Source: Candidatus Omnitrophota bacterium (lineage in GTDB: Bacteria > Omnitrophota > Gorgyraeia > Duberdicusellales > 4484-171). From it: 64,000 nucleotides of DNA. Positions 25,814-41,940 of the stretch are shown piece by piece; position 1 is the stretch's first letter, and each line of letters begins with the position of its first letter. Location: the NCBI GenBank assembly GCA_021735655.1, contig JAIPGM010000002.1, positions 258,747-322,746 on the forward strand, read 5' to 3'. The notes under the pieces are model-generated. The model made no database searches and had not been told where the DNA came from. It saw nothing but the letters and a program-made list of their open reading frames with translations. The translations under genes and the position numbers were made by a program.

Positions 25814-27310
25814 CTAGAAAAAGAGATCTCTTTCGCCTTCTTTAATCCTTCGATAATAACTCATGAATTGGTCAAAAACCTGAGGGATGTTTTTGCGGAC
25901 TTCCTCTATTTCTTTCGTGATTACTTTCTCAGCTATATTTTTAGTTTCCTCGCTGGCAAAATCATCTAACCATTCACGAAAAGTTAAAACAGCATTTAAT
26001 TTACAAAATTTACCTTCTTGACCAGTTTTAAGTAACTCCATAATGCATTCACCCGTTCTGCCGCAGCGATAACCAGCAGTACAAAAAGAACTGATTACCC
26101 CCATTGAGGCAAACTCTCTAATCATCTCATCTAGGCTACGAGTATCAGCCAAAATAAATTGCTGTCGGGGGCTGTCTTGAGTTTTACTCTGATCGCTGTA
26201 TGAACCAATTCCTATTTTGGTAGAAGCATCAGTTTGAGTTATTCCTAGCCTGATTGAATCTCTCTTCATCTGAGGGGTTTCCCGACAAGTAATAATTAGA
26301 CCAGTATGAGGCACAGCCAGTCTAAGCACAGTAATTAACTTTTTAAACTGCTGATCCGAAACCTTATATTTTAAATTATCATTAAAAGGCGTGTTTTCTG
26401 CCGGTTCAAGGCGTGGAAAAGATATCGTATGAGCTCCGACACCAAATTTATCCTCTAATTCACGATTATGCGCAACCAAGCTCATTAGCTCAAACTTCCA
26501 ATCGTAAAGCCCAAATAAAACACCCAAGCCAACATCATCAACCCCAGCCTCAAAGGCACGATGCATCGCATAAAGTCGCCAGAAGTAATTTCCTTTTATT
26601 GTAGTTGGCGGATGAATAGTTTTATAGGTGGTCTTATGGTAAGTCTCTTGGAAAACTTGATAGGTACCAATTCCGACATCTTTTAGACGACCCAATTCCT
26701 CTATCGATAAGGGCGGAGCATTCACATTTACCCGACGAATCTGACCAACGCCATTTTTGGTTTTCTCCCGAACATTATAAATAGTACGAATTGAATCAAC
26801 CATGTAATTTATATCATTCGAAGGATGCTCTCCATAAACGACAATTAAACGTTTATGACCAATCTTACCAGCCAAAACAGCGGTTTCCTTCTCAACCTGC
26901 TTTAAGCTTAAGACTCGGCGTTCACTCTTTGTGTTAGATCGTCTGAAACCACAATAAAGACAATCATTAACACAATAATTCCCAAGATAAAGCGGAGCAA
27001 AGGTGACGATTCGATTGTCATAAACCTTTCGCTTCACCCTTAAGGCGCATTCCTTCATCAATTCTAATGTTTTAGAATCAGTTACCCTTAAAAGGGTTGC
27101 CGTCTCATCAAGAGTTAAAGTTTTAATCGCTAAGGATTTATTTAAAATGTCTTCGACTTCTTTGGAATCAGGCTCCTGAGTGCATGATAATTTCGTAAAG
27201 ATTTCTTTCTGAGGAATAAAATCCTTACCCTCAATCATATAACGCTCAATTTGGTCGCGCTTTATACGTTGAGACTCCCAACTCTGAAATTTATTAGTCT
27301 TAATTAACAT
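25814..27310 (-). CDS. HydG-like radical-SAM tyrosine lyase (ThiH family with C-terminal Cys-containing extension)
   Basis: 498 aa. Radical-SAM CxxxCxxC in ThiH/HydG context (PLYLGNYCVNDCLYCGF). Too long for ThiH (~375 aa); C-terminal ~100 aa carry SFCTAGYRCGRTGEC...C, resembling the HydG C-terminal auxiliary-cluster region. Confidence 0.65.
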   Translation of the reverse strand: MLIKTNKFQSWESQRIKRDQIERYMIEGKDFIPQKEIFTKLSCTQEPDSKEVEDILNKSLAIKTLTLDETATLLRVTDSKTLELMKECALRVKRKVYDNRIVTFAPLYLGNYCVNDCLYCGFRRSNTKSERRVLSLKQVEKETAVLAGKIGHKRLIVVYGEHPSNDINYMVDSIRTIYNVREKTKNGVGQIRRVNVNAPPLSIEELGRLKDVGIGTYQVFQETYHKTTYKTIHPPTTIKGNYFWRLYAMHRAFEAGVDDVGLGVLFGLYDWKFELMSLVAHNRELEDKFGVGAHTISFPRLEPAENTPFNDNLKYKVSDQQFKKLITVLRLAVPHTGLIITCRETPQMKRDSIRLGITQTDASTKIGIGSYSDQSKTQDSPRQQFILADTRSLDEMIREFASMGVISSFCTAGYRCGRTGECIMELLKTGQEGKFCKLNAVLTFREWLDDFASEETKNIAEKVITKEIEEVRKNIPQVFDQFMSYYRRIKEGERDLFF

Positions 27311-27952
27311 CTAACTTCCCTGCTTTACAAAAAATATTAAACTCTCTAACTCACAAGCCATATCAACGTTAGAAACAAATATATTATCAGGAACTTTCAA
27401 GGCAATTGGAGCGAAGTTAAGTATTCCCTTAATATTTGAATCGATTAACTGGTTAGCTATGTCTTGAGCTACTTCAGGCGGCGTAGCTATTATTGCTATT
27501 TTTATTCCATCTTTTTTAATCATTTCACTCAAATTATCAATAGCCTGAACTACGATACCTTTTTTTGTTTTACCAATCTTTTTCTGATCATTATCAAAAA
27601 TTGCAGTAATTTTTATATTAAACTTTGAAAAACCATCGAACCCCAACAAGGCCCCACCGACTCTACCTAGGCCTACCAAAGCAATATTCCAATCAATATG
27701 GGTTCCGACTATTTTTTGGATTTGTCCAATTAAAAAATCTACGTTATAGCCCACACCGCGCTTGCCAAATTCACCAAAATAAGACAAATCCTTTCTAAAC
27801 TGAGACGGAGTTACGTTTAAAAACTTAGTTATTTTATCCGAAGAAATAACTTCAACTCCCTGCTTTTTTATTTTTCGTAAGTTACGTAAATACAGAGTAA
27901 GCCTTCTGATCGTTTCCAAAGAAAAATGTTTCTTGTCTTTACTGTTTTTCAT
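27311..27952 (-). CDS. rex: Redox-sensing transcriptional repressor Rex
   Basis: N-terminal winged-helix domain (RLTLYLRNL...) plus Rossmann NADH-binding domain (IALVGLGRVGGALL); 213 aa. Confidence 0.85.
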   Translation of the reverse strand: MKNSKDKKHFSLETIRRLTLYLRNLRKIKKQGVEVISSDKITKFLNVTPSQFRKDLSYFGEFGKRGVGYNVDFLIGQIQKIVGTHIDWNIALVGLGRVGGALLGFDGFSKFNIKITAIFDNDQKKIGKTKKGIVVQAIDNLSEMIKKDGIKIAIIATPPEVAQDIANQLIDSNIKGILNFAPIALKVPDNIFVSNVDMACELESLIFFVKQGS

Positions 27953-29270
27953 CAGATACTCTAGTATCCCGAGCTATACCTAAATCGGTAGGCGCCCGGC
28001 CTAAAGATTTAAGTAAATTAATAGTCTCAGTAATCTGATCATTAATCTCCGCTTCGCCATAGGCCTTATTAGGATAAATTGCATAATACTTTCGATATTT
28101 ACGCGGAGTTAAATTGAGCATTACCGAATTTCCACCCGAAGACAATCCTTTCTTGCGTGCCTCTAAAGATAAGGTCTCAAAGGCTGTGGTTATAAGAATT
28201 TTAGCCGCTTCTGGATCGATTAAACGAGCCAAAGCAAGGTTTTTTAAAACTTCTTCTTCAGAAGGAGCTTTGCAATTGGCCAAGAGACTATTCGGGTGAG
28301 GCAAAAATGGCCCAAATGAGTACATCTCAGAGCCCAAAGCCTTAGTTAGATAAATATCATTTATCGTATCTTGATTAGTTTGACCAGGCAAACCAATCAA
28401 GGCACCAGTCATAACTAAATACCCTAATTCATGGGCTTTTTTTAGATGATCCAGGCGACTATCTAAAGTTTGGCCAGGATGTAATTTCTCATAGATTTTA
28501 GGATTTGAAGTTTCAAAACGCATCAACAATGCTCTTGCCCCAGCCTGATAAAGCTTAAGCAATCCATCAAGCCCGACTTCACCAAAGCTTATACAAATCA
28601 AAACTGGAACCGTTTCTTTAATTTTTCTTATAATTTCCGCTAGATCATCTATGCTATAGTGTGGGTCTTCTCCCGATTGCAAAACTAAAGCCTGGAAACC
28701 ATACTCTTTAACGGCACCAACTGCCGTCTCAATGATTTCCGCCGCTGACATTCGATAACGCATAAGATTCTGGTTGTCAGCTGAAATACCACAATATTGA
28801 CAACTCTGCTTACAAAAATTAGATATTTCGATTATCCCATGAATACAACATGAATTTTTATGGTACTTTTGACGCAAAAAGTTAGCGGTTCGATAAAGAA
28901 TATCTTGAGCCTCAGGCTTATCTAACTTAAGTAAATAAAATAACTCTTCTTTACTCAATTGAATATTTTCTAAAGCTTTATCTAAAATAAGACTTAGCTG
29001 CCTGTCGATATTTTTTTTGCTAAGATCCAAGCGAGACAATCGTAAGTCCATATCCTGAAGTTCGAAAAAAAGCTCATTCCAAGCTGCCAAGGTCTCCTCA
29101 GCCTCCTTTGGGGAAACTTTTTTAATTACAAACCCGCCTTGAGCCGACACATAATCACCGGGTTTGATATCATAAAACTCATTGATTGCTTTTTTTTCTT
29201 CACCAAAGTAATCAACCAGAACGGTTTTCCCAACTATTTCTTTTACCTTGCCAGGTATTGCATAACACAT
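27939..29270 (-). CDS. HypC-domain (N-terminal) fused to HydE-like (BioB-family) radical-SAM enzyme
   Basis: From the second Met: MCYAIPGKVKEIVGKTVLVDYFGEEKKAINEFYDIKPGDYVSAQGGFVIKKVSPKEAEETLAAWNELF, the HypC/HupF signature (MC-x-A-IP...GDYVLVHVGFAI...EA.ETL). A ~40-aa linker follows, then a HydE-type radical-SAM core (IEISNFCKQSCQYCGISADN; Fe-S/SAM motifs; ~350 aa). A single uninterrupted frame of 443-447 aa. Confidence 0.7.
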   Translation of the reverse strand: MCYAIPGKVKEIVGKTVLVDYFGEEKKAINEFYDIKPGDYVSAQGGFVIKKVSPKEAEETLAAWNELFFELQDMDLRLSRLDLSKKNIDRQLSLILDKALENIQLSKEELFYLLKLDKPEAQDILYRTANFLRQKYHKNSCCIHGIIEISNFCKQSCQYCGISADNQNLMRYRMSAAEIIETAVGAVKEYGFQALVLQSGEDPHYSIDDLAEIIRKIKETVPVLICISFGEVGLDGLLKLYQAGARALLMRFETSNPKIYEKLHPGQTLDSRLDHLKKAHELGYLVMTGALIGLPGQTNQDTINDIYLTKALGSEMYSFGPFLPHPNSLLANCKAPSEEEVLKNLALARLIDPEAAKILITTAFETLSLEARKKGLSSGGNSVMLNLTPRKYRKYYAIYPNKAYGEAEINDQITETINLLKSLGRAPTDLGIARDTRVSDEKQ

Positions 29271-29284
29271 AACAAACTCCAATT

Positions 29285-29527
29285 TTACTCTACATCAAAC
29301 GATAGCACCTGTATCACTGTTCCCGGGAAAAAAGTTAGCTCTAGCTCAGCCTTAGCACAAGGAGTCCCCTCAGCTAAAATTTTAAAGGTTTCTCTAAATG
29401 AATCCTCCTTGATCCCGTTCAGCTCACCGATTTTTATATGTATCTTAGACACTACCTTTGAGCCTTCTTTTTCAGCGTGTTCACAAATTCCTTTAATCAA
29501 TGGTTTTATGATATGGGTTTCGTGCAT
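29285..29527 (-). CDS. hypA: HypA N-terminal (nickel-binding MHE) domain protein lacking the zinc-finger domain
   Basis: Starts MHETHIIKPLIKGICEHAEKEGSKVVSKIHIKIGELNGI, matching the HypA N-domain (MHE Ni-site, ...IGELSGV...). Only 80 aa; no CxxC...CxxC zinc module. Flanking genes leave no room for it. Confidence 0.55.
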   Translation of the reverse strand: MHETHIIKPLIKGICEHAEKEGSKVVSKIHIKIGELNGIKEDSFRETFKILAEGTPCAKAELELTFFPGTVIQVLSFDVE

Positions 29528-29982
29528 GTTTTTACCTCAATAATTAAATTAGTTAATTCCTTTAATGTTTTAGCAACACTTTGTGAAATCTCATCACCAA
29601 ACTCAAGAGTTTTCGGTTGCACCCCTAAAAGAAAAATATCAGCTTCGGTTTCTTTACCCAAAAAATCTAAAAACATCCTTGGTGATAAATCATGAGTAGT
29701 GAATCCCGATTTCACGATATCTTCCTTAACTAAAATCTCATAATCTCCTGGCTCTTTACCAAGATCAACAACATCAACTATTAAAATCGTATTTGGACGT
29801 TCTTTGGTTATTTTGCCAATATAGTTTTCTGGTGCTGAACCAACATCAATACAGGTTGCATCCACTTTCTGGTAAACAGTCTCAATGAACTTAGGACCGA
29901 AAGCATCGTCACCACGCATAATATTTCCTACCCCAACGATAACGACTTTCCCTTTAAAAACATTCCGAAAAATATTATTCAT
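29506..29982 (-). CDS. hycI: [NiFe]-hydrogenase maturation endopeptidase (HycI/HyaD family)
   Basis: VVIVGVGNIMRGDDAFGPKF...DVGSAPENYIG...ILIVDVVD motifs of hydrogenase C-terminal-processing proteases; 158 aa. Confidence 0.8.
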   Translation of the reverse strand: MNNIFRNVFKGKVVIVGVGNIMRGDDAFGPKFIETVYQKVDATCIDVGSAPENYIGKITKERPNTILIVDVVDLGKEPGDYEILVKEDIVKSGFTTHDLSPRMFLDFLGKETEADIFLLGVQPKTLEFGDEISQSVAKTLKELTNLIIEVKTCTKPIS

Positions 29983-30022: not shown

Positions 30023-30634
30023 TTACTCAGCAGTAAGGGTGGTTTCACGTCGACAGCGGGCGCATAGAATCTTAACTCGATCAGAACGCCCATCATCCCT
30101 TAAAGCTGAAACAATATTTTCATCTACAATACCAAGACTTTTAAGATGGGAAAGATAAAGCGTAGGACTTGAGTAGGTAAGCTCACCTAATTTTTGAGAA
30201 ATCCATTTAAGGTGATCTTTGCAGGCTATTACATCGCCGCAAACTTCACAAAGTTGTAGTTCTTTTTCTATTTGTTCTTGGGCTTGAGCGCGGTCAAAAA
30301 ATGATAACTCCCAATCAGTAGATAACTTAATACCTTGCTTATCAGCCAAACAGGCTGCTTCACACTGTCCACAAAAAATACAAGTATCAGTATAATGAAT
30401 CATCAGCCGCTTAGGATCATCTTTATTTTCAGTAATATCCTTATGAGAAATCGCTTCAACTGGGCAAACCTCTTCACAACCGCAACAACCAACACATTTT
30501 TGATCATTAAACTTCGGCTGACCGCGAAAGTTAGGATGAGCCACATGGGCCTCTTTAGGGAACTTTGACGTGTAAGGCCCCTTAATCAATGCCTTGATTG
30601 CTTCAACCAACTCTCTTAATTTTGGCAACTTCAT
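30023..30634 (-). CDS. NuoI/MbhN/HycF-like 2x[4Fe-4S] ferredoxin subunit with C-terminal Cys-rich extension
   Basis: CVGCCGCEEVCP and CIFCGQCEAACL cluster motifs in NuoI arrangement, plus extra CEVCGDVIAC and CARCRRE motifs. Confidence 0.6.
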   Translation of the reverse strand: MKLPKLRELVEAIKALIKGPYTSKFPKEAHVAHPNFRGQPKFNDQKCVGCCGCEEVCPVEAISHKDITENKDDPKRLMIHYTDTCIFCGQCEAACLADKQGIKLSTDWELSFFDRAQAQEQIEKELQLCEVCGDVIACKDHLKWISQKLGELTYSSPTLYLSHLKSLGIVDENIVSALRDDGRSDRVKILCARCRRETTLTAE

Positions 30635-30652
30635 AAATTTATCTTAAAAAAG

Positions 30653-30727
30653 AAGCGTAAAACGTAGTCTAGACTCAATATTCTTGAATCACCCGTGGCT
30701 AAAACTTTTCGTCTACGTTTACGCTTC
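30653..30727 (-). repeat. Intra-operon long-stem inverted repeat (15-16 bp arms, ~44-nt loop) between mrpG-like and nuoI-like genes
   Basis: GAAGCGTAAAACGTAG at 30653-30668 and its complement CTACGTTTACGCTTC at 30713-30727; the right arm overlaps the last codons of the mrpG-like ORF. Confidence 0.35.
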
Positions 30728-31057
30728 TCCTTCCTTATCCTCTTTATATTTATCAATTACACTACCTTCCCAAAGTTTAACCCCGGCCCGATGGGCTCCT
30801 CTGGCTACAGCATGGGCAGCTACCGGCGAGGTTAACAAAAGAAAAACCGCACAAAGAAGCGCCTTAAAGCCCGCGGCAATAAAGCCAACAATTAAAAATG
30901 TTCCAAAAAGAATACTACAAGTTCCTAAAGTAACACACTTGGTGGCTGCTTGAAGACGATTATATACATCCGGAAGTCTTACCAAACCTAAGCAACCAAC
31001 TATATCAAAAGCTAACCCACCGGAAATGAATATCAAACCAATAATATCACTCATCAA
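30719..31057 (-). CDS. Mrp antiporter subunit G-like (MbhC-like) membrane subunit
   Basis: RLPDVYNRLQAATKCVTLG...TSPVAAHAVARGA matches the MrpG/PhaG signature; 3 TM. Confidence 0.6.
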   Translation of the reverse strand: MMSDIIGLIFISGGLAFDIVGCLGLVRLPDVYNRLQAATKCVTLGTCSILFGTFLIVGFIAAGFKALLCAVFLLLTSPVAAHAVARGAHRAGVKLWEGSVIDKYKEDKEGEA

Positions 31058-31442
31058 ACCCTCTTCCCTCTAAATATTTCGAAAGAGCTAAGGTGCTAAT
31101 AAAACTTTGAAGCGCCCAAGCAATTCCAATATCCAGATACCAAGATCTTCCAGTCGAAATAGTTAAAACTGCACAAAGCCCCACAATCATAATCCCTAAA
31201 ATATCAATCGCTACAATTCTGTCGGCTCCGGTAGGACCTTTAGCAATACGATAAAGCGCCAGTACACATCCTAGAATTAGAATGTAAAGTGCCCTCCCAA
31301 CAAGACCACTATAGACGAGATTTTCAGGAAAAAGAAAACCAAAAGGCCTAAAAATAATTAAGCCTAAAACAATACTAAGGGTAGTTGCTCCAAACAGCCA
31401 ATTTAACATCTTTTTGCTTTCAGCTTTTTTCTTTTTAGCCAT
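31047..31442 (-). CDS. Mrp antiporter subunit F-like (MbhB-like) membrane subunit
   Basis: YRIAKGPTGADRIVAIDIL motif typical of MrpF/PhaF. Confidence 0.55.
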   Translation of the reverse strand: MAKKKKAESKKMLNWLFGATTLSIVLGLIIFRPFGFLFPENLVYSGLVGRALYILILGCVLALYRIAKGPTGADRIVAIDILGIMIVGLCAVLTISTGRSWYLDIGIAWALQSFISTLALSKYLEGRGFDE

Positions 31443-31447
31443 AGTAA

Positions 31448-31945
31448 TTATTCAAATATTTTTCTTAATATTTTCTCAAACCGCTCAATAATAACTTTGG
31501 TAGCAGCTTCAGTCTGAGTTTCCTTCACGTCAATCCAATGTACATATAAAACACCATCATCCTTGTCAATATCTACAGTTAAAGTTCCTGGAGTAAGTGT
31601 TATTGAATTCGCTAAAAATGTAAGCGCTGTATCTGTCTTAAGCGTAGTTTTCACCTTAACAATGCCAGGTTTTATCGGTAAATTAGGATGTAGAATCCTG
31701 TAGGCAACATCAATATTTGCTTTAAAACACTCCCATAGAAATCTCGGAAGATAATAAACAAAAAAATACCAGTATCTCAAAGGGTGCTTAAGGACATGAG
31801 GACGTTTTACAAACAAATCTCCGGTTAAAAAAGCACAAAGAGCGGCTGCGAATACACCAATAGCTAGATGCTGCCAATCCGGTACCCAGTTCAATAAGCA
31901 CCATACAACAAAGGCAACTAAAAATAAAACTATTTTTCTTTTCAT
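31448..31945 (-). CDS. Mrp antiporter subunit E-like (MbhA-like)
   Basis: 165 aa with two N-terminal TM helices and soluble C-terminus; position and size match MrpE. Confidence 0.45.
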   Translation of the reverse strand: MKRKIVLFLVAFVVWCLLNWVPDWQHLAIGVFAAALCAFLTGDLFVKRPHVLKHPLRYWYFFVYYLPRFLWECFKANIDVAYRILHPNLPIKPGIVKVKTTLKTDTALTFLANSITLTPGTLTVDIDKDDGVLYVHWIDVKETQTEAATKVIIERFEKILRKIFE

Positions 31946-33441
31946 TGGACTGCTCTGATAATATTTATTGTGTAGTTTTTTGTGCCAAGCAAAACCCCAG
32001 AGGCTTTAAGCAGGAATTGTTCTCTTATCCCCGGAAAAAATAAAAACCCACCTAAAAGGCAAACTAAAACTAAGATAATCATCGAAGCCTTCATGAAAGC
32101 AGGCACTTCAGTAATATTTTCCCACTGTTTCCTAAGATTTCCAAAAAATGCATACTTCATAACCTTGGTAAAAGAAGCAAGGGTCAAAATACTAGCCAAC
32201 ACTGCCCAAAAACCATACCAATACTGGTTGGCCTGAACACAAGCAATAATAATAATTAACTTGCTCCAAAAACCATTAAACGGCGGAATTCCAGCGATTG
32301 ACATAGAAGCTCCAAAAGCAGTAGCTGAGGTAACTGGCATTCTTTGACTTAATCCCCCCATTTTTTTTAAATCTCTGGTTCCGGTTGTGTATTCAACAGC
32401 ACCAGAATTTAAAAAAAGAAGAGATTTGAATATTGAGTGATTGAACAAATGGAATAAGCCTCCGATTATACCTAAAGGAGTGCCCAAACCTATCCCCAAA
32501 ATAACATAACCAATCTGGCTTATTGAATGATAGGCAAGCAAACGTTTCAAATCCCACTGTCCGATAGCCAAAAATACACCAACCACCATTGAGAGCGCAC
32601 CGAGCGCCATCAAAATCATTGAAAGCTGACTATTCACACCTAAAATATTAAAGAATATACGGCAAAGAGTGTATACTCCTAATGATTTAATCAATACCCC
32701 AGAAAGCATAGCTGATATTGGAGCTGGTGCTGAAGGATGAGCATCAGGAAGCCAGGCATGAAACGGCACCAAAGCTGCTTTTAAACCAAAACCCATAAGA
32801 AACAATACACTTACTAATATTAAAACATTTGGGCAGTCGGCTTGAGACAAAACTAAACCCATATCAGCCATATTTAGGGTTGAAGTGCAACTATATAGAA
32901 ATACAATACCTAAAAGAATAAATAATGACCCTACGGTACTCATCAGGGCATATTTAAAGGCGGCTTCAAGCTCATGGCGTTCAGTTCCAAAAGCAACCAG
33001 AGCATAACTAGCAACAGAGGCAATCTCTAAAAAAACAAAAAGGTTAAATATGTCGCCAGTTATCAAAACCCCGTTCATCCCTCCCAACATCAATAGAAAT
33101 AAGGTGTAAAATTTCCATTTAGCGGTGAACTTTTCCATGTAGTTAATTGAAAAAAGAGCTACACAAAAAGCAACTAAATTAACCGTAACTAACATAAAAC
33201 TAGTTAGACCGTCTAAGACAAAAGTTATCCCGATTGGCGGCTTCCAAGATCCAGCAGCATAAACCAACACTCCATGCTCAGCCACAAGTTTTACACTGTA
33301 AAGCGACAAAAATAAAAGAGCTGTTGTGCATAAATTACCAATTAAATCCGGCAGCCATTTACTTTTTTTACCAAACAAAACAGTTAAAAAGGCACCCGAA
33401 AGACAAACTACAACAAAAATTGGTATAATATTAGAACTCAT
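31942..33441 (-). CDS. MrpD/NuoN-like proton-pumping antiporter subunit
   Basis: 499 aa, ~14 TM, conserved antiporter-fold motifs (…AHSSISQIGYV…, NSGAVEY). Confidence 0.75.
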   Translation of the reverse strand: MSSNIIPIFVVVCLSGAFLTVLFGKKSKWLPDLIGNLCTTALLFLSLYSVKLVAEHGVLVYAAGSWKPPIGITFVLDGLTSFMLVTVNLVAFCVALFSINYMEKFTAKWKFYTLFLLMLGGMNGVLITGDIFNLFVFLEIASVASYALVAFGTERHELEAAFKYALMSTVGSLFILLGIVFLYSCTSTLNMADMGLVLSQADCPNVLILVSVLFLMGFGLKAALVPFHAWLPDAHPSAPAPISAMLSGVLIKSLGVYTLCRIFFNILGVNSQLSMILMALGALSMVVGVFLAIGQWDLKRLLAYHSISQIGYVILGIGLGTPLGIIGGLFHLFNHSIFKSLLFLNSGAVEYTTGTRDLKKMGGLSQRMPVTSATAFGASMSIAGIPPFNGFWSKLIIIIACVQANQYWYGFWAVLASILTLASFTKVMKYAFFGNLRKQWENITEVPAFMKASMIILVLVCLLGGFLFFPGIREQFLLKASGVLLGTKNYTINIIRAVQ

Positions 33442-33443
33442 AT

Positions 33444-33779
33444 CTATCCCCGCAACTCTCTAATTTTAGTAATATCAAATGTTTGATACTTTTCATAAAT
33501 TCGCATAGCGATTGCAATAAGCAAAGCTGTTGATGCCAAACCAATAACAATTGAAGTCAAAACTACTGCCTGAGGTAAGGCATCGACCATATTATTAATT
33601 GTTGTGTCTGGTGAATATATCGGAGAACGCCCCTTTATCCGATAAGCAACTAAGATAAATAAAAGATTTACTGCATATTCAGCGATGATAACACCAATAA
33701 TAATCTTAATTATATTACGTTTACGTAAAATACAATAAAGACCAACACAAAAAAGCACCAAACAAAGCAAGTAGATCAT
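33444..33779 (-). CDS. MrpC/NuoK-like small membrane subunit
   Basis: 111 aa, 3 TM, NuoK-like size and hydrophobicity. Confidence 0.55.
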   Translation of the reverse strand: MIYLLCLVLFCVGLYCILRKRNIIKIIIGVIIAEYAVNLLFILVAYRIKGRSPIYSPDTTINNMVDALPQAVVLTSIVIGLASTALLIAIAMRIYEKYQTFDITKIRELRG

Positions 33780-34231
33780 TTTCCTTCGGTTCCTCCATCA
33801 AATTTAAGCAAAGTAAGGGCAATAAATATAGCAAACAAACCGGCCCCGACCTTTAAACTAATTGCAATATTACAAAGTGGAATAATCCCAGCTGAAAAAA
33901 GTCTAAACGGCTCCCCCTTAGGAAGAAAGTTTAAAAAGAAATACCCACCAGTAAACCCCAAAAGGGCAATTGCTAAAAACATTATTGCTCCAAAACCTTC
34001 AAAAAAAGAAATAGCTTTCTTAGGCATTCTTTTTAAAGCCGCGTCTTTACCATAAGCAAGCATTAAATGAATAAAGCTGAGTGCAATAATTACCCCTCCG
34101 GCAAATCCTCCACCGGGGGAAACATGACCATGAGAAAGAATATAAATACCAAAAAGAAGTATTATGCCCACGGTAAGACGAGTAATTGTCTTAACGATTA
34201 CCGACATTCCCTTTTCATGCTCTTTGCTCAT
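33776..34231 (-). CDS. MrpB-like (MbhF/G-like) membrane subunit
   Basis: 151 aa, 4 TM; position between MrpA-like and MrpC-like genes. Confidence 0.4.
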   Translation of the reverse strand: MSKEHEKGMSVIVKTITRLTVGIILLFGIYILSHGHVSPGGGFAGGVIIALSFIHLMLAYGKDAALKRMPKKAISFFEGFGAIMFLAIALLGFTGGYFFLNFLPKGEPFRLFSAGIIPLCNIAISLKVGAGLFAIFIALTLLKFDGGTEGK

Positions 34232-34780
34232 TTATTCATCCTCTGGGTCTACTTTCTCATTAATTTTTTTACGCCCGACCCTGCGCACTAGGGTTAAAAC
34301 ACCTATTACTGCGGTAAATAAAACTGTAGCTTCACCTAAGGTGTCATAGGCTCGATAATCAAGAATAACTGAAGCAACAATATTAGTTGCTCCGGTCTTA
34401 GCTAAGCCTTGCTTAAGATAAGTATCGGCCACCCGCATAATTGGATAACCAAAACGTGGCAAATCACCAATTGCCTTATAGGCTGCAAATAAAAATAAAC
34501 TAACAAAGCCTAAAATAATTGAGGTATTAAGTAACCATCGACCACTAGTTGAAAAAGGTAAATCTTTTTTTAAAGTTGCCCGAATCAAAATGATTAAACA
34601 TAATATCTCAACTACTAATTGAGTAATTGCAACATCGGGAGCTTTGAGAATAATAAACGTTATCGAAAGCCCTAGCCCTACGGCACCGACGGCAATAACT
34701 GAGGAAAGCAGATCTTTAAGCTCAACGGCGACAATTGCCCCAACAATCATAAAAATTAATAAAATATATAGCTCAAACAT
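34232..34780 (-). CDS. Mbh-type small membrane subunit (MbhD/E-like)
   Basis: 182 aa polytopic membrane protein directly downstream of the MrpA-like gene. Confidence 0.4.
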   Translation of the reverse strand: MFELYILLIFMIVGAIVAVELKDLLSSVIAVGAVGLGLSITFIILKAPDVAITQLVVEILCLIILIRATLKKDLPFSTSGRWLLNTSIILGFVSLFLFAAYKAIGDLPRFGYPIMRVADTYLKQGLAKTGATNIVASVILDYRAYDTLGEATVLFTAVIGVLTLVRRVGRKKINEKVDPEDE

Positions 34781-34787
34781 ATTTAAG

Positions 34788-36446
34788 TTACTTTAAAAGT
34801 ATATAAAAAAGTATCCCCATACCTAAAAGACACCAGGACAAATAAGTAGATAAAATGCCATTATGCAAATAACGCAAAATACTGTTAAAGCCAAAAGTAA
34901 TTTTACTACCGACTTCATAAATATCGAATAATTTCTTATTAGCTAAACTATAGATAACCTTTAACAGGCCCAACTCTTTGATTGTGTTATAAAAATCAGT
35001 TCCTGAAACTCTCATCTCGGGATATTTTTCAGTGCTTTCTCCGCCCATAAAAATATTAACCTGGCGACTCTTTGAAACTGTGCCCAAAAGATAAACTATT
35101 AGACCAATGACCATGCCAGCAAGAATCAAAGCCGTAGCTAAACTTGCATTCCAGACTCCGGAAAACTCTACTGGCTGCCAAATAACCGGAAAGATAAAAA
35201 ACTTAAGCGGAAGCCGGTAAGCAAATACACCAAAAACTACACATAGTAAGGCTAAAATTGCTCCCGGTATCCACATCGCTAGCCCAACCTCTTTTTTCTG
35301 ATCTTTACTGAGTGCTTTTACGGTTGTGCTTTCTTGACCCAAAAATACAGCATGAACAAGTTTCATGAAACTTGCCAAAGTTAAGGCACTTCCAAACATG
35401 GCTGAAACTAACCAAACGACCCATAACCCACCACTGTTTTTAGCCGTCTCAATGATACCCTGGTAGATCATCCATTTAGAAACAAAACCATTAAATGGCG
35501 GAACCCCAGAGATAGCAAATGAAGCAATCAAAAAAGTAATAAAAGTAATCGGCATATATTTAGCAAGACCGCCAAGTTTATCTAAATTAGTAGTTTTGGT
35601 CCTTTTTTCTACAGAGCCACTGGTTAAAAATAAACAAGACTTATAAATCGCATTATTCAGCATATGAAATAGTCCACCGGCAATACCGATAATTGTACCC
35701 GTACCAATACCTAAAATCATATAACCAACTTGACTTACCGCATGATAACCAAGGAGTCTCTTTAAGTCATGTTGGACTAAAGCCATCATAACCGCAGCTA
35801 TAATAGTAAAGCTACCGATAAACATCAAAAATGTATTCATGCTTAAACCTAAACGAAACATTTCCAAGGAAATTCTAATTAAAAGATATATTCCCAAAAG
35901 TTTGTCCAAAGAAGCAGGCAAATAAGCCGCAACCGGAGTTGGTGAGTCTTCAGCTGCGTCAGGAACCCAGGTATGAAAAGGCATAGCCCCGGCTTTAGCA
36001 AAAGCTCCGACCGCCAAACAAAGATAGGCAAAAGTAGCCACCTTAGAAGTCAATGGTATTGATATTAAATCCATCTCGAATAAACCGGTAAGTTTCCAAA
36101 TTAAGGCAACTCCCAAAAGCATTAAAGCATCGGTTCCACCAATTATAATAAATGCTTTCTTTGCCGTAGCTGAGCTATTATCCTTTTTACCAAAGCCAAT
36201 TAAAAGATAAAGAAGCAACCCCAAGAATCCCCAGAAAACCATGAACAGAATTAAATTATTGGCAAAAACCACACCCAAAGAAGCAATCAAAGTAAAAAAG
36301 ATATAAAGGTAGTAACGTGAAATTCCACGTTGGGCACGCATGTACCCCATCGAATATACAGTTACCAAAATAGAAAAAAACCAAATAAATATTCCGACAA
36401 ATATCGACAAAGCATCAAATCTAAAATAATTCGCTAAAAAATTCAT
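34788..36446 (-). CDS. MrpA/NuoL-like antiporter subunit (MbhH-like)
   Basis: 552 aa, ~16 TM, NuoL/MrpA family motifs (…HAVSQVGYMILGIG…, WVPDA). Confidence 0.75.
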   Translation of the reverse strand: MNFLANYFRFDALSIFVGIFIWFFSILVTVYSMGYMRAQRGISRYYLYIFFTLIASLGVVFANNLILFMVFWGFLGLLLYLLIGFGKKDNSSATAKKAFIIIGGTDALMLLGVALIWKLTGLFEMDLISIPLTSKVATFAYLCLAVGAFAKAGAMPFHTWVPDAAEDSPTPVAAYLPASLDKLLGIYLLIRISLEMFRLGLSMNTFLMFIGSFTIIAAVMMALVQHDLKRLLGYHAVSQVGYMILGIGTGTIIGIAGGLFHMLNNAIYKSCLFLTSGSVEKRTKTTNLDKLGGLAKYMPITFITFLIASFAISGVPPFNGFVSKWMIYQGIIETAKNSGGLWVVWLVSAMFGSALTLASFMKLVHAVFLGQESTTVKALSKDQKKEVGLAMWIPGAILALLCVVFGVFAYRLPLKFFIFPVIWQPVEFSGVWNASLATALILAGMVIGLIVYLLGTVSKSRQVNIFMGGESTEKYPEMRVSGTDFYNTIKELGLLKVIYSLANKKLFDIYEVGSKITFGFNSILRYLHNGILSTYLSWCLLGMGILFYILLK

Positions 36447-37630
36447 TTTATGCCTAGTTTACTTTTTATCTTTTCGGTTTTACTTTGTGAAAGGCGAACT
36501 AAATCCTCACCGTTATATATTTTTTTACCCTTAGTGTTACGTACCGCCACTCTCTCAGTACAACAATAACAAGGATCAATGGACGCTAAAATTATCGTTG
36601 CATCAGAAATCGTCTCGCCAACCACAGTTGCCTTATAGGTCGGTAAATTCATAAAAGTAGGTGCTCTTACTTTGTGACGAGCCGGTCGATTGGTCCCATC
36701 GCTTTTCACATAATGAAAACATTCACCCCGCGGCGCCTCAATATGACCGATACCTTCACCTGAAGGAATACTTTTAATCTTAGCATCAATTTCTGTATCC
36801 GGAAGGTTTAAAAGGCAATACTTAACCATATCTATCGATTCAAAAGTCTCTAAAATTCTTACTACCGCTTTATCGAAAACATCGCCATTTTTAGTCACAA
36901 TCATATTCCAGTTAAACTGATCATATGCCCCATAAGGAGAATTTTTACGTAGATCTCTGGCCACCCCCGAAGCCCGAGATACCGGACCGAGAGCACAAAA
37001 GTTAATTGCCTCATCCTTAGTGAGGATACCTATTCCTTTAGTCCTAGCATGTAACACCGGGTCATCGATTACTGCCTTTTTAAGCATTTCAAGAGTCGGG
37101 ATAATCGAATCTATCTTTTTTATCGCAAAAGGTATATCTTCTTTTTTTATGTCTCGCCGAACCCCTCCCGGCTTAAACATAGCATAGTTGTTGCGATTTC
37201 CCGAAAGTGCCTCCATAACATCAAGGATTTCCTCACGCAACTTCCAAGCCCACATATAAACAGTATTGTAACCTAAAAAATGTCCGGCAAGACCCAACCA
37301 TAAAAGATGTGAATGAATACGTTCTCCCTCAGCGATAATTGTTCGGATATATTTAGCCCTCATTGGCACTTCTAGAGGGATAACATCCTCAACTGCCCGA
37401 GTATAAGCATAAGGATGACTGGTTGAACAAATACCACAGATTCTCTCAATTACAAAAGTAGATTGGTCGAAGGTTTTTCGCTCAGAAAGCTTTTCAATGC
37501 CGCGATGGTTATAACCAATCTGAACATCGATATCAACAACTGTCTCCCCATCTACAGTTAAGCTGAAAAACTCAGGCTCTTCCTGTAAAGGGTGATATGG
37601 TCCGATTGGAACTATAGTTCGTTTTCCCAT
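36443..37630 (-). CDS. [NiFe]-hydrogenase large (catalytic) subunit, group 4 (Mbh/Ech type)
   Basis: N-terminal L1 motif ERICGICSTSH (RxCGxCxxxH) and C-terminal L2 motif DPCYCCTER (DPCxxCxxR), followed by a ~35-aa extension of the kind removed by HycI-type proteases; NuoD-like fold, 395 aa. Confidence 0.85.
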   Translation of the reverse strand: MGKRTIVPIGPYHPLQEEPEFFSLTVDGETVVDIDVQIGYNHRGIEKLSERKTFDQSTFVIERICGICSTSHPYAYTRAVEDVIPLEVPMRAKYIRTIIAEGERIHSHLLWLGLAGHFLGYNTVYMWAWKLREEILDVMEALSGNRNNYAMFKPGGVRRDIKKEDIPFAIKKIDSIIPTLEMLKKAVIDDPVLHARTKGIGILTKDEAINFCALGPVSRASGVARDLRKNSPYGAYDQFNWNMIVTKNGDVFDKAVVRILETFESIDMVKYCLLNLPDTEIDAKIKSIPSGEGIGHIEAPRGECFHYVKSDGTNRPARHKVRAPTFMNLPTYKATVVGETISDATIILASIDPCYCCTERVAVRNTKGKKIYNGEDLVRLSQSKTEKIKSKLGIK

Positions 37631-38103
37631 TATAATCCTCGATCTCTAATTGATGAGTCGTCCCACTCTTGATAATCGCGTCTCAAAGGATATACACCTT
37701 GTGGCCACTCATCGGGCAAAAGCAACCGCTTCAACTCTGGATGACCGCGAAAATTGACTCCTAACATTTCAGCTATCTCACGTTCAATCCAATTAGCACC
37801 TTCAAATATTGGGGCTAATGAATCTATTTCTAATTTGCTCTTATCCAACTTAACCCGGAAAGAAACTACTAAATTTATATCTTCAAAGGTAAAATGATAA
37901 AGAATTTCTATATGTTTAAATGTATCTACTCCCGAAGCAATATTGAATCTGGCCCCCAAATTTTTAAAAACATAGGTCGCAACCTTAACAATCGCCTGAG
38001 GTTTAATCTCAATATAGACCCGAGTTAAGGTCTTATCGAAAATATCTAAAATATCTTCGTCGAATCTTTTCTTTAAATCTTTAATAACTTCGCTTCTGGT
38101 CAT
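37630..38103 (-). CDS. NuoC/MbhK-like hydrogenase subunit
   Basis: 157 aa with NuoC-like (30 kDa subunit) core motif (FEGANWIEREIAEMLGVNFRGHP). Confidence 0.7.
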   Translation of the reverse strand: MTRSEVIKDLKKRFDEDILDIFDKTLTRVYIEIKPQAIVKVATYVFKNLGARFNIASGVDTFKHIEILYHFTFEDINLVVSFRVKLDKSKLEIDSLAPIFEGANWIEREIAEMLGVNFRGHPELKRLLLPDEWPQGVYPLRRDYQEWDDSSIRDRGL

Positions 38104-38540
38104 TTTGCTTGAGGGTTTCCAGCCCCACTTAATTTATCGATTAACTTAACAACCCCGGCAATAATCGCCTCTGGTTTCGGCGGGCACCCAGGTATATATA
38201 CGTCTACCGGAATAATTTTATCAACTGGCAAAGGACAGTTATAGCTATGAATAAACATACCTCGCGACAAAGAGCACTCACCAACAGCCACTACTACACA
38301 AGGCTTCGGCATCTGCTCATATACTTCTTTAATCCGAGGAATGCACTTTCGATTAGCAGAACCAGTTACTAAAAGCACGTCAGCATGTTTTATGCTTCCG
38401 GCTAAAAGCATGCCAAACCTTTCGATATCAAAGCGTGGGGTTAAACAATCCAATATTTCAATATCGCAATTATTGCAACTACCAGTTGAAAGATGAAAAA
38501 CCCATGGTGACTTGAGTAATGCTTTAAGTTTTATGCTCAT
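38100..38540 (-). CDS. [NiFe]-hydrogenase small subunit (NuoB/MbhJ-like, proximal [4Fe-4S])
   Basis: CNNC...GxCxxxG...PGCPP motifs (STGSCNNCDIE, VAVGECS, YIPGCPPKPE). Likely true start is the internal Met (MSIKLK...), avoiding overlap with the upstream gene. Confidence 0.8.
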   Translation of the reverse strand: MSIKLKALLKSPWVFHLSTGSCNNCDIEILDCLTPRFDIERFGMLLAGSIKHADVLLVTGSANRKCIPRIKEVYEQMPKPCVVVAVGECSLSRGMFIHSYNCPLPVDKIIPVDVYIPGCPPKPEAIIAGVVKLIDKLSGAGNPQAK

Positions 38541-39460
38541 AAACCCTTTAAGGCTAAAATAACTGCGATTATAGCAATAATCAACATTGGCCCCCAAAAA
38601 AATCTTATTGCCTGATCAATTCTAACTCTAGGATTAGTATTACGAATAACGGTGATCAAGGCAACCAAACCAACATACCTCAACACCCCGTATATAAGAT
38701 TTAAGCCGTTTAGTCTTAACCCACCAATAAAAGTAATCATTATAAAGAAAGGCAAGACAAAGAACAACATATTTTTCATAAGTTTGTATACCGCAAGCGG
38801 GGCTCCCGAATACTCAACTAACGGTCCACCAATAATTTCGGTCTCAGCTTCAGGAATATCAAAAGGCACTAAGGCTAGTTTTGCCTGTACACACATAATA
38901 ATTACAATAAAAGCCAAAAACCCCGACCAGCTTCCTAAGATTACGCCATTTTGAGCCTGATAAGTGATAATTTCACCTAAACGCAAGCTAAACCCGCTTT
39001 GAATAACCGGAACTAAAACCGCTAGAATAAATGGCAATTCATAACTTAAAACTAATTTCATTTCTCGTGATGCACCAATACTAGCTAAAGGATTGCCTGA
39101 AGCAAAGCCTCCGATAATTATGCTTATTGAAGGAATAGCCAATAAATAAACTACAACAACAATATCACCAACAAAGGTCCTCAGCGGATTAAAATTATTA
39201 AACCAAAGCACCGTAGACACAACAATAACACTCCCTAAACCAATAATCGGAGCGCTCAAAAAACTAAACTGAGAAGCGCCTTTAGGAACCAAAGTCTCTT
39301 TTCCAAGAAGCTTCACCAAATCAATAAGCGGCTGTAGGATTGGCGGCCCAACGCGATACTGAACTCGAGCGGTAACTTTACGGTCAACCCAGCTAGTTAA
39401 CAAACCAATAATGGCGGTTAACAAGAATCCGAAAATAAAAAGATAAACTAAATAAATCAT
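38537..39460 (-). CDS. NuoH/MbhM/HycD-like membrane subunit
   Basis: 307 aa, 8 TM, NuoH-like loops (…GGPLVEYSGAPLA…, EAETEIIGG). Confidence 0.75.
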   Translation of the reverse strand: MIYLVYLFIFGFLLTAIIGLLTSWVDRKVTARVQYRVGPPILQPLIDLVKLLGKETLVPKGASQFSFLSAPIIGLGSVIVVSTVLWFNNFNPLRTFVGDIVVVVYLLAIPSISIIIGGFASGNPLASIGASREMKLVLSYELPFILAVLVPVIQSGFSLRLGEIITYQAQNGVILGSWSGFLAFIVIIMCVQAKLALVPFDIPEAETEIIGGPLVEYSGAPLAVYKLMKNMLFFVLPFFIMITFIGGLRLNGLNLIYGVLRYVGLVALITVIRNTNPRVRIDQAIRFFWGPMLIIAIIAVILALKGL

Positions 39461-40023
39461 ACTTTTTCTCTATCCCAATGAGTAGAATGTACTATTAAAT
39501 TGTCACCAACTAAAAATGAATCTTTGGTTAATAAATCATCCGAATTTACTAATTTTAATGCTCCGTATGGGCATGATTTTATGCAAAGCGGTTCATTTTT
39601 TTTATCTCTTCGATCAAAACAAAAATCACAATTATGAATTAAATAAGGCACATGCTCAGGATAAATGGTTCCGTAAGGGCAAGCATGAGAACAAGTTTTG
39701 CAACTTACGCAACGCATATTATGCCTAATCAAAAGGTTGTCTTTTTCGGTTTGTTGTTCCAAAGCCTCAAATGGGCAAGCATTAACACAGTGAGGTTCTT
39801 GGCATCTACGACAAACCAAAGCATAAGTTGCCAATTCAGCTACTGAAACTATTCCATTATTTATCGGATCTTGAGTGTGGTAAAAATAGCTGCACTCTAA
39901 CTTACATTTTTTGCATTCTCCGGCCGCACAAATATCAAGATCAACAAAAAGCCGTTGACCACTATCAGATTTAGCTTCGGTATTTAATTTTCCTTGATGT
40001 AGTTGTTCGGCACTTGTATCCAT
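39457..40023 (-). CDS. Polyferredoxin (HycB/CooF-like, multiple [4Fe-4S] clusters)
   Basis: At least four Cys clusters of CxxCxxCxxxCP type (CRRCQEPHCVNACP, CVSCKTCSHACP, CDFCFD...CIKSCP). Confidence 0.65.
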   Translation of the reverse strand: MDTSAEQLHQGKLNTEAKSDSGQRLFVDLDICAAGECKKCKLECSYFYHTQDPINNGIVSVAELATYALVCRRCQEPHCVNACPFEALEQQTEKDNLLIRHNMRCVSCKTCSHACPYGTIYPEHVPYLIHNCDFCFDRRDKKNEPLCIKSCPYGALKLVNSDDLLTKDSFLVGDNLIVHSTHWDREKV

Positions 40024-40030
40024 AATAGCT

Positions 40031-40855
40031 CTAATCCCAAATATTAGGAAAATTCTTTATTTTGTCGTAAGTAAACACTGGTCCATCTTTGCAGGCATAA
40101 TAAGTCCCTAGCCGACAATGACCGCATTTACCAATTCCACAAGACATATTTTTTTCCATTGAAAGATAGATATTCTTCTCCTTAAAACCCAACTCAAGCA
40201 ATTTTTTAGTAGAAAACTTCATGGCGATTGGCGGCCCGCAAACAATAGCTATTGCCTCAGGGCAATTCATATCTAAATCATCCAAAATTGTAGTAACAAC
40301 ACCTACGTTACCTTTCCAATCAGGGCTAGCTTTATCAACAGTAAGTCTTAAATTTAAATCATCTCGCTTTGCCCAGCCGGCTATCTCAGTTTTATAGAGT
40401 AGCTCCTGTGAGGTTTTACAGCCACCCCGAAAAGACAGCTTCTTAAACTCCCCGCTTCGGGCAAAAAACTCATACATCAAACTACGCAAAGGAGCAAATC
40501 CACATCCACCACCGACGACAACGATTTCCTTACCTTTAAATTCATCAATCGGGTAACCAGTCCCAAAAGGGCCTCTCACTCCAATCAAATCGCCTTTTTT
40601 AAGCTGATGAACTTTATCGGTAACCTTGCCAACTTTCATTACCGTGACTTCCATTACATCTCTCACTGATGGCCTCGATGAAGGTGTAAATGGCGCCTCA
40701 CCCACGCCGGGAACAGTTAATTCGATAAATTGACCGGTCTCAAAACCCAAAGGCTCTTTAGGACGAAAACGTATGGTTTTAATCGTTGGCGTTTCGGTTA
40801 TTACATCAAGAACTTCGGCCTCAATCGATCTGTAAGGATTCTCGATTTTATGCAT
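40031..40855 (-). CDS. FAD/NAD(P)H-binding oxidoreductase, hydrogenase/sulfite-reductase gamma-subunit-like (PyrK/AsrB fold) with C-terminal [2Fe-2S] motif
   Basis: FNR-like domains (RFRPKEPLGFETGQFIEL; GPFGTGYP; VVVGGGCGFAPLRS) and C-terminal CGIGKCGHCRLG 2Fe-2S motif. Confidence 0.65.
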   Translation of the reverse strand: MHKIENPYRSIEAEVLDVITETPTIKTIRFRPKEPLGFETGQFIELTVPGVGEAPFTPSSRPSVRDVMEVTVMKVGKVTDKVHQLKKGDLIGVRGPFGTGYPIDEFKGKEIVVVGGGCGFAPLRSLMYEFFARSGEFKKLSFRGGCKTSQELLYKTEIAGWAKRDDLNLRLTVDKASPDWKGNVGVVTTILDDLDMNCPEAIAIVCGPPIAMKFSTKKLLELGFKEKNIYLSMEKNMSCGIGKCGHCRLGTYYACKDGPVFTYDKIKNFPNIWD

Positions 40856-41919: not shown

Positions 41920-41940
41920 TTTGTGATTTTATTCACAAAG
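41920..41940. promoter_or_regulatory. Perfect TGTGA-N6-TCACA palindrome (Rex/CRP-type operator) upstream of the hydrogenase operon
   Basis: cTTTGTGAttttatTCACAAAg, an 8-bp perfect inverted repeat ~50 nt upstream of the first operon gene. It matches the Rex box consensus TTGTGAA-N4-TTCACAA, and Rex is encoded inside the operon. Confidence 0.5.

Follow-up and report, generated by a model that had tools for sequence, protein, structure and literature searches.

A HypC-HydE fusion protein in [NiFe]-hydrogenase operons of Candidatus Omnitrophota and a possible hybrid route of cofactor maturation

The [NiFe] and [FeFe] hydrogenases are a textbook case of convergent evolution, and their maturation machineries are unrelated. 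Why, then, should a single gene encode HypC, a maturation protein of the former, joined to HydE, a maturation enzyme of the latter? This question is raised by a 64,000-nucleotide stretch of DNA from a Candidatus Omnitrophota bacterium (contig JAIPGM010000002.1 of assembly GCA_021735655.1; hereafter, the window), in which an open reading frame (ORF) at 27939..29282 on the minus strand carries a HypC domain in frame with a HydE-type radical S-adenosylmethionine (radical-SAM) domain. The domains themselves are known; the architecture and the operon logic are new. Its position, next to HydG and the genes of [NiFe] hydrogenases, suggests a hybrid route to the [NiFe] site in some bacteria, one that has not yet been described. 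HypC-HydE, to which HydG is added in a dozen cases, points to the existence in nature of a bridge between the two maturation systems, because the fusion sits in [NiFe] operons in most of the loci compared here.

Two domains in one reading frame

The ORF comprises 447 amino acids (aa) when read from a TTG codon and 443 aa when read from an ATG at 29270, four codons further on, from which the protein begins MCYAIPGKVKEIVGK. A Cys directly after the initiator Met is required for HypC function. The ATG at 29270 is likely the true start, judging from a GGAG sequence 7 nt upstream and from the N-terminus MCY[A/S]IP, which is found in all 39 homologues from species genomes. At the GC content of the window (37.4%), the chance of 443 stop-free codons is ~4e-13, and the first-pass annotation was thus right to regard an open frame of ~1.3 kb as unlikely to arise by chance.

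Homologues were sought among 5.8 billion proteins, and the top 120 clusters were listed. PF01455 and PF04055 occur together in 118 of the 120 listed clusters (59-80% identity, 431-454 aa), whose named members are almost all metagenome-assembled genomes (MAGs) of Candidatus Omnitrophota. A genome scan, in which each species was represented by one genome and each locus was read with flanks of 10 kb on either side, yielded 39 loci, nearly all from Omnitrophota, that match the fusion from residue 1 to about residue 430 at 47-72% identity. An assembly frameshift or a lost stop codon that merged two neighbouring genes is excluded by this conservation and has a negligible probability, since the same continuous architecture recurs in more than 100 independent clusters and in 39 species genomes from many studies, and the helix between the domains carries invariant residues. 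On sequence comparison, the HypC-HydE fusion is therefore confirmed as a genuine conserved architecture. In addition, a deeper sister group of HypC-radical-SAM fusions (P0143 and P0144) was observed, with 517-530 aa, an MCLTIPGK start, and a longer low-complexity linker.

The N-terminal segment was identified as HypC in the first-pass annotation. Pfam agrees: HupF_HypC (PF01455) covers aa 1-64 with 55.9 bits, where the gathering cutoff is 28.5, and the full profile (positions 1-65) is matched. The stricter cutoff of the NCBIfam hypC model (TIGR00074, 48 bits) is missed at 43.3 bits, so that the identification stands at the level of the Pfam family and falls short at that of the NCBIfam model. 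HypC of Thermococcus kodakarensis (2Z1C) matches aa 1-67 with E = 1e-10. The fusion begins MCYAIPG, and M1, C2, Y3, I5, P6, and G7 are invariant in an alignment of 55 sequences; the essential N-terminal Cys that had been pointed out is therefore kept, directly after the Met.

Between the two domains lies a conserved helix with a short linker (aa 54-95), in which W64, F68, F69, D75, and S79 are invariant in the same alignment. With 55 homologues as input, AlphaFold modelled the 443-aa protein at high confidence (pLDDT 89.5, pTM 0.88): an OB-fold of five strands is followed by a long helix (aa 54-78), a short stretch of coil (aa 79-89), and the barrel. The conserved aromatic residues of the connector and the high pTM suggest that the HypC and HydE domains may be held in a fixed mutual arrangement. 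In a Foldseek search, no solved chain covered both domains together.

With regard to the C-terminal part, Radical_SAM (PF04055) is found over aa 147-302 with 66.1 bits, and T. maritima HydE matches aa 96-428 with E = 4e-64. In Foldseek comparisons the barrel superimposes on T. maritima HydE with a TM score of 0.94-0.96, an rmsd of 1.5-1.8 Å, and 36-38% identity. The claim of a HydE/BioB-type radical-SAM enzyme of ~350 aa thus holds for the type of barrel, and its length is corrected to ~333 aa. Together with the profiles, the PDB matches, and the homologues, these data bear out the in-frame joining of HypC to a HydE-like radical-SAM domain. The segment IEISNFCKQSCQYCG, quoted in the first-pass annotation, is the CX3CX2C radical-SAM motif, whose cysteines (C153, C157, and C160) are invariant in the 55 sequences. 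Arg155, Arg159, and Arg180, which we take to be the S3-site arginines of T. maritima HydE, correspond to R246, R251, and R272, all invariant or at least 90% conserved; Met224 corresponds to M316 (at least 90% conserved) and Met291 to M384 (invariant). In HydE crystals these two methionines ligate an Fe(CO)2CN species, and the S3 site is made up of two arginines and a threonine (PMC10114646). From these residues, the invariant C2, and the fold of the barrel, both domains look functional.

The fused domain departs from canonical HydE in several respects. Its best NCBIfam model is HydE (TIGR03956, aa 97-422) with 248.9 bits, narrowly below the equivalog cutoff of 254.6, followed by PylB and BioB, and the cysteines of the T. 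maritima auxiliary cluster are missing, as they are in many HydEs. The plain HydE of one Omnitrophota genome (L023) reaches 359.6 bits on the same model and is 35% identical to the fused domain. All HydE domains fused to HypC fall into a single clade in a neighbour-joining tree, and both plain HydE and the HydE-HydF fusions lie outside it. The fused domain is thus, on these comparisons, a diverged HydE lineage. Could it instead act on another substrate, for instance to modify the large subunit or to supply a non-standard ligand or sulfur, with HypC serving only for targeting? The score just under the cutoff, the PylB and BioB runners-up, the lost auxiliary cysteines, and the lack of a hydrogenase link in the deeper sister group (no hydrogenase genes adjoin the only member examined, L045:10001-11593, of the P0144 group) would agree with such a function. 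The counterparts of the Fe(CO)2CN-binding methionines and of the S3-site arginines are kept, however, and HydG, for which no product other than the substrate of HydE is known, lies adjacent or is fused, which makes a different chemistry very improbable.

Association with [NiFe] hydrogenase genes and HydG

When the ORFs of the 39 loci were labelled by comparison with the window proteins, the fusion was found directly after [NiFe]-hydrogenase genes in 36 of them. These comprise 14 Mbh-Mrp operons, 14 of a four-gene type, six Ech-like ones, and two truncated ones; the four-gene type is group 3b-like, since its subunits have their best matches in the sulfhydrogenase subunits ShyA/B/C. The architecture thus occurs widely and beside three classes of [NiFe] hydrogenase. 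The maturation endopeptidase HycI is encoded at most three genes upstream of the fusion in 30 of the 39 loci, and a CbiM-type Ni/Co uptake protein follows the fusion directly in four Ech-like loci (L030:7378-8229 and its homologues in L031-L033). HydG is present in 25 loci, in 20 of which it lies no more than three genes downstream.

Single loci offered some further observations. On two contigs of 2.0-2.7 Mb labelled Spirochaetota (L026 and L036), the fusion stands alone beside ABC-2 transporter genes or a Mutator-family transposase. In an Auribacterota MAG, a PurU-like formyl-tetrahydrofolate deformylase (ACT and Formyl_trans_N domains; L024:192-1112) is encoded directly upstream of HycI and the fusion and recalls the formyl-tetrahydrofolate (formyl-THF)-dependent CO synthesis by HypX. 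The H-protein is the donor for the dithiomethylamine bridge of the [FeFe] site; in another locus (L016:15747-17241), HydG is followed, after a few genes, by those for the T and H proteins of glycine cleavage, possibly by coincidence.

HydG is not only a neighbour of the fusion. The complete Omnitrophota chromosome CP070797.1 encodes a protein of 921 aa (L006:10001-12766) in which HypC is combined with two radical-SAM domains and a BATS domain, which amounts to HypC-HydE-HydG; a search with this protein yielded 12 full-length triple fusions of 895-946 aa (P0121-P0132). Four of these are Omnitrophota-like (66-100% identity to the query) and eight are 43-45% identical to it, the only named members of the latter group being P0126 and P0129, both from Nitrospirae/Nitrospirota. 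In the tree, the Omnitrophota triple fusions nest beside the window protein and possess a variant HydG motif, while those of Nitrospirota branch elsewhere and possess the canonical one. These differences in placement and motif suggest that HydG was joined to HypC-HydE at least twice, once in Omnitrophota and once in Nitrospirota. In both Nitrospirota contexts with upstream sequence (L041:10001-12721 and L044:10001-12769), a group 3b-like [NiFe] hydrogenase, HycI, and a small cNMP-binding protein precede the triple fusion; precomputed Pfam assignments revealed no Hyp family within 10 kb of either.

Another explanation of these neighbourhoods would be that the HydE domain and HydG mature an [FeFe] hydrogenase encoded elsewhere, and that the fusion and its position beside [NiFe] genes reflect only co-regulation, for example by Rex, which commonly controls hydrogenase genes. 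The best NCBIfam match is, after all, an [FeFe] maturase, its neighbour is a bona fide HydG, and an [FeFe] hydrogenase (HydA) operon adjoins in three of the 39 loci (L012, L015, and L029). It was also reported that some Omnitrophota have [FeFe] hydrogenases (PMC8542988). On the other hand, in exactly these three loci a separate plain HydE, 33-37% identical to the fused one, and a HydG are kept beside the [FeFe] genes, and the fused copy lies beside the [NiFe] genes. No HydF-like GTPase ORF was found in any locus with a crude regular expression for GTPase motifs, which a divergent HydF could escape. Because HydA was found in only three of the 39 loci, which have their own plain HydE, because the fused domains form a distinct clade below the equivalog cutoff, and because no HydF-like ORF is seen, the fused HydE is read here as not being the [FeFe] enzyme. 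In addition, co-regulation would hardly explain a covalent fusion that is kept down to 47% identity, was apparently extended to HydG more than once, and is associated with three unrelated types of [NiFe] operon. A bystander role of this kind is accordingly judged improbable.

In the window itself (Table 1), all genes from 41873 down to 25814 lie on the minus strand and overlap or are at most 84 nt apart, in the order Fer4_22, FAD/NAD, ferredoxin, MbhM, MbhJ, MbhK, large subunit, Mrp module, MbhN, HycI, HypA, HypC-HydE, Rex, and HydG. The Rex gene overlaps the stop codon of the fusion by 14 nt and abuts HydG. Hydrogenase genes are commonly under Rex control, and a perfect Rex operator is predicted 48-65 nt upstream of the first start codon; it is the sole site without mismatch in the window. 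Owing to this spacing and this operator, the whole cluster from the Fer4_22 gene to HydG is predicted to be one Rex-controlled operon.

Table 1. Coordinates in the window of the fusion, its domains, and the other features of the predicted operon.
Feature	Position	Strand	Basis
HypC-HydE fusion, 443 aa	27939..29270	-	ORF, Pfam PF01455 and PF04055, NCBIfam HydE, PDB matches, AlphaFold model
HypC domain, aa 1-64, OB-fold with N-terminal Met-Cys	29079..29270	-	PF01455
Connecting helix and short linker, aa 65-95	28986..29078	-	Model secondary structure, invariant columns
HydE-type radical-SAM TIM barrel, aa 96-428	27987..28985	-	5FEW residue alignment, invariant columns, Foldseek
HydG tyrosine lyase, 498 aa, two genes downstream of the fusion	25814..27310	-	TIGR03955, 4WCX
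Rex redox-sensing repressor	27311..27952	-	NCBIfam Rex, 257.6 bits
Mini-HypA, 80 aa	29285..29527	-	PF01155, 54.8 bits, profile positions 1-70 of 112
HycI-type maturation endopeptidase	29506..29982	-	PF01750, 64.3 bits; TIGR00072, 103 bits vs. cutoff 47.45
Mrp-type eight-gene membrane module (MbhH, MbhD/E, MnhB, MnhC, MrpD, MnhE, MrpF, MnhG) and MbhN Fe-S subunit	30023..36446	-	Pfam
[NiFe] large subunit, MbhL-like, 395 aa	36443..37630	-	6CFW_L match, motifs
MbhK (30 kDa), MbhJ (small subunit), MbhM (NuoH-like)	37630..39460	-	PF00329, PF01058, PF00146
Fer4_22 (AsrA/ShyB-like), FAD/NAD-binding (AsrB/ShyC-like), and 2x[4Fe-4S] ferredoxin; first three operon genes	39457..41873	-	Pfam
Palindromic Rex operator TTGTGATTTTATTCACAA, perfect, predicted	41921..41938	.	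Window motif scan

The large subunit resembles subunit alpha of the Pyrococcus furiosus MBH (6CFW_L, MbhL) with E = 6e-90 and contains the motifs RICGICSTSH and DPCYCCTER, followed by a 35-aa C-terminal extension of the kind cut by HycI; E. coli HycE, of Hyd-3, shares 39% identity with it. Both CxxC Ni-Fe motifs, the C-terminal tail, and the Mrp-type membrane module identify the enzyme as an Mbh-type group 4 [NiFe] hydrogenase. The products of the first three operon genes are subunits for electron input of the kind usually seen in soluble group 3b enzymes; combined with an Mbh-Mrp enzyme, they hint at a membrane-bound hydrogenase linked to NAD(P)H. The short HypA keeps the nickel-binding MHE N-terminus and is missing the entire zinc-finger domain with its CxxC pairs. 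Such an 80-aa HypA is conserved in Mbh-type and 3b-like loci, and two Ech-like loci (L033 and L034) encode a normal HypA of 111-115 aa with two CxxC pairs.

HydG of the window is identified by TIGR03955 (448.5 bits, cutoff 312) and by 4WCX (E = 4e-128). In its C-terminal motif, FCTAGYRCGRTGEC...FCKLN replaces the canonical CTACYR...C, so that CX2C becomes CX6C. The same C-x6-C...C arrangement (FCTAGYRCGRTG...FCKLN, in place of CX2CX22C) is kept in at least 16 loci and is conserved in the Mbh-linked lineage, and the motif is canonical beside 3b-like operons and in the Nitrospirota triple fusions. The change might alter the product of the dangler-iron site of HydG. A Marinimicrobia HydG of the variant type (P0138) had no hydrogenase context at its locus. 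Downstream of HydG, before an aldo-keto reductase, lies an ORF for an M29-like peptidase (24718-25716, minus strand; TTG start, weak Pfam match); in syntenic Omnitrophota loci the aldo-keto reductase follows HydG directly. Apart from the operon, the window encodes an EF-G-like protein of 1069 aa (4184-7393, minus strand), whose GTPase domain begins at residue 382 after an N-terminal extension of about 380 residues without Pfam match.

A candidate route to the [NiFe] site

The only known role of HydG is to make the Fe(Cys)(CO)2(CN) synthon, and that of HydE is to process it (PMC10114646). HypC carries Fe(CN)2CO on its Cys2 to the apo large subunit (PMC12134894). From these known roles, the chain HypC-HydE(-HydG) in [NiFe] operons is read as a pipeline, and HydE-HydF fusions (P0145 and P0146), which tie HydE to the acceptor of its product, suggest by analogy that HypC is the acceptor here. 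We consider it somewhat probable that HypC-HydE is a dedicated [NiFe]-hydrogenase maturase, in which HydG and HydE pass a tyrosine-derived Fe-CO/CN unit via Cys2 of HypC to the large subunit.

Briefly, HydG would cleave tyrosine and assemble an Fe-carbonyl-cyanide synthon, which the HydE domain would take up and strip of its cysteine scaffold by 5'-deoxyadenosyl radical chemistry. The released Fe(CO)x(CN)y fragment, instead of being handed to HydF, would be caught by the Cys2 thiolate of the tethered HypC domain, which would then dock on the apo large subunit (MbhL in the window) and hand over the fragment. Nickel insertion, aided by mini-HypA, would follow, and HycI would finally cut off the 35-residue C-terminal tail. 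Through Rex, maturation capacity would track the NADH/NAD+ ratio. The first-pass annotation had held that the fusion physically couples radical-SAM chemistry to the [NiFe] Fe-ligand carrier. The [NiFe] and HydG synteny and the recurrent triple fusions argue for such a coupling, and the chemistry itself is a matter of inference. With HydG two genes downstream, Rex and its operator, and no HypD, HypE, or HypF nearby, the case is stronger than the one made then.

The classical machinery was sought in the window and in 45 loci (~0.87 Mb), where tblastn with Escherichia coli probes detected no HypB, HypD, HypE, HypF, or standalone HypC. Probes from the same set did detect HycI, HycE, and HypA, as well as HypC, the last only at the N-terminus of the fusion. 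Among nearly all ORFs of at least 90 aa in the window, Pfam and NCBIfam revealed no HypB, HypD, HypE, HypF, HydF, or HydA. Neighbours of the size of HypD, HypE, HypF, or HydF proved to be an MFS transporter, an epimerase, GcvT/GcvH, CbiM, an H+-PPase, a dicarboxylate symporter, and a YkuD transpeptidase; a histidine kinase, NuoF/HydA, a GltD-like protein, GDH, an HD protein, an aldolase, and ADH; and ABC transporter components, a transposase, a BadF-type ATPase, PurU, and a glycosyltransferase. It is a tentative possibility that HypD, HypE, and HypF play no part in making the Fe-CO/CN half of the [NiFe] site in Omnitrophota, in some Nitrospirota, and in a few further lineages, where both CO and CN would be derived from tyrosine by HydG, with processing by HydE and insertion by HypC. 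The CO/CN ratio of a site made in this way could be non-standard.

Several points weigh against the proposed maturase role and this route. The main chemical difficulty is stoichiometry: the HydG product has two CO and one CN, the [NiFe] site one CO and two CN, and an extra ligand-exchange step must therefore be assumed. In E. coli HypC, His51 is needed for Fe/CO2 binding; its position is taken by Gln44 in the fusion, which is invariant in the 55-sequence alignment and replaced by Ala in L006. The model of the triple fusion (pLDDT 82.1, pTM 0.53) has well-folded modules joined by a HydE-HydG linker that is predicted to be disordered. HydG is not found in 14 of the 39 loci, including all the Ech-like ones, two loci (L026:10001-11299 and L036:9989-11302) have no hydrogenase within 10 kb, and an [FeFe] operon adjoins in the three loci described above. 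Finally, the E. coli HypD, HypE, and HypF probes had no positive control in these phyla, and the negative results for Hyp proteins, HydF, and HydA pertain to the window and the 10-kb flanks and not to whole genomes.

Alternatively, the HypC domain might function as a classical HypC does, together with HypD, HypE, and HypF encoded at other places in the genome and with cyanide taken from carbamoyl phosphate, and HydE and HydG would then add only one ingredient, most plausibly CO or the iron itself. This would accord with HypC family membership and the invariant Cys2, would avoid the CO/CN mismatch, and would be compatible with the 10-kb range inspected, as hyp genes are often scattered and unlinked in genomes. 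A lineage-specific source of CO is also plausible in view of a 2025 review of the [NiFe] cofactor, which names the source of CO in anaerobic maturation as the question most in need of an answer and mentions neither HydG, HydE, nor radical SAM (PMC12134894). However, a classical hypC usually has hypD as its neighbour, as in E. coli, and no HypD was seen beside the fused HypC in the 39 species loci or in the Nitrospirota loci; the Gln in place of His51 also speaks against a classical HypC. In addition, a 2026 preprint on the closed 1.52 Mb genome of the Legionellales symbiont Candidatus Centrionella anaeramoebae, which has a fusion of HydE and HypC termed unusual there, nowhere names HypD, HypE, HypF, or HydG (bioRxiv 10.64898/2026.04.11.717937); this fits the HypD/E/F-independent hypothesis and is not a stated absence. 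A purely supplementary role is therefore regarded as unlikely, although it is the rival taken most seriously.

Returning to the proposed maturase, its route may replace HypD, HypE, and HypF altogether or may supply only part of the cofactor, such as the CO ligand. It offers a concrete candidate source of ligands, namely tyrosine through HydG, at least in these lineages. If replacement holds true, the [NiFe] cofactor would have a second biosynthetic route, one based on radical-SAM chemistry, and the [FeFe] and [NiFe] maturation systems would be linked in evolution. If HypD, HypE, and HypF were dispensable, the minimal gene set for heterologous production of [NiFe] hydrogenases could shrink to a few genes, and predictions of hydrogen metabolism that require the full hyp set would need revision for Omnitrophota and their relatives.

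Comparison with known systems

In the full-text literature, no study of a HypC-HydE protein was found, the sole trace being the Centrionella preprint. This source devotes one sentence to the fusion, without analysis, distribution, HydG link, or mechanism (bioRxiv 10.64898/2026.04.11.717937). The Centrionella fusion has the same architecture and lies in a [NiFe] operon with a maturation protease and HypA; unlike in the window operon, HypB is present. The Centrionella fusion may be related to that of locus L038. A genomic study of Omnitrophota reported one hydrogenase per MAG, including group 4g Mbh-Mrp enzymes, and contains nothing on maturation (PMC8542988).

Like HypC, HybG, and HupF (PF01455), the N-terminal domain is an OB-fold of about 65 residues with a helix, starts with Met-Cys-x-x-[IV]-Pro with the invariant Cys2, and is encoded beside a [NiFe] large subunit and its endopeptidase. 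Unlike these proteins, it is fused to a radical-SAM enzyme, has Gln at the position of His51, and has no adjoining HypD in more than 40 loci; unlike in E. coli HypC, the helix after the OB-fold bears the invariant aromatic residues W64, F68, and F69. The C-terminal domain shares with HydE (TIGR03956; 3CIX, 5FEW, and 7O1O) the barrel, the CX3CX2C motif, the counterparts of Met224, Met291, and the S3 arginines, and the HydG partner. It differs in its N-terminal HypC, its score below the equivalog cutoff, its lack of auxiliary-cluster cysteines, and its occurrence in [NiFe] rather than [FeFe] operons with no HydF nearby.

With regard to the pathway as a whole, the proposed end point is the same as in the classical HypCDEF system, that is, an Fe-carbonyl-cyanide unit delivered on Cys2 of HypC to the apo large subunit. 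The proposed ligands would come from tyrosine, in contrast to carbamoyl phosphate (HypE/HypF) or formyl-THF (HypX), and there is no local HypD. HypX, an aerobic and lineage-specific source of CO, provides a precedent for CO supply as an add-on module. A precedent for the architecture is found in the HydE-HydF fusions, of which Chlamydomonas HydEF is an example and in which HydE is likewise joined to the receiver of its product, so that the fused partner serves as acceptor or scaffold. The partner in HydEF is the HydF GTPase scaffold at the C-terminus, whereas in the protein described here it is HypC at the N-terminus.

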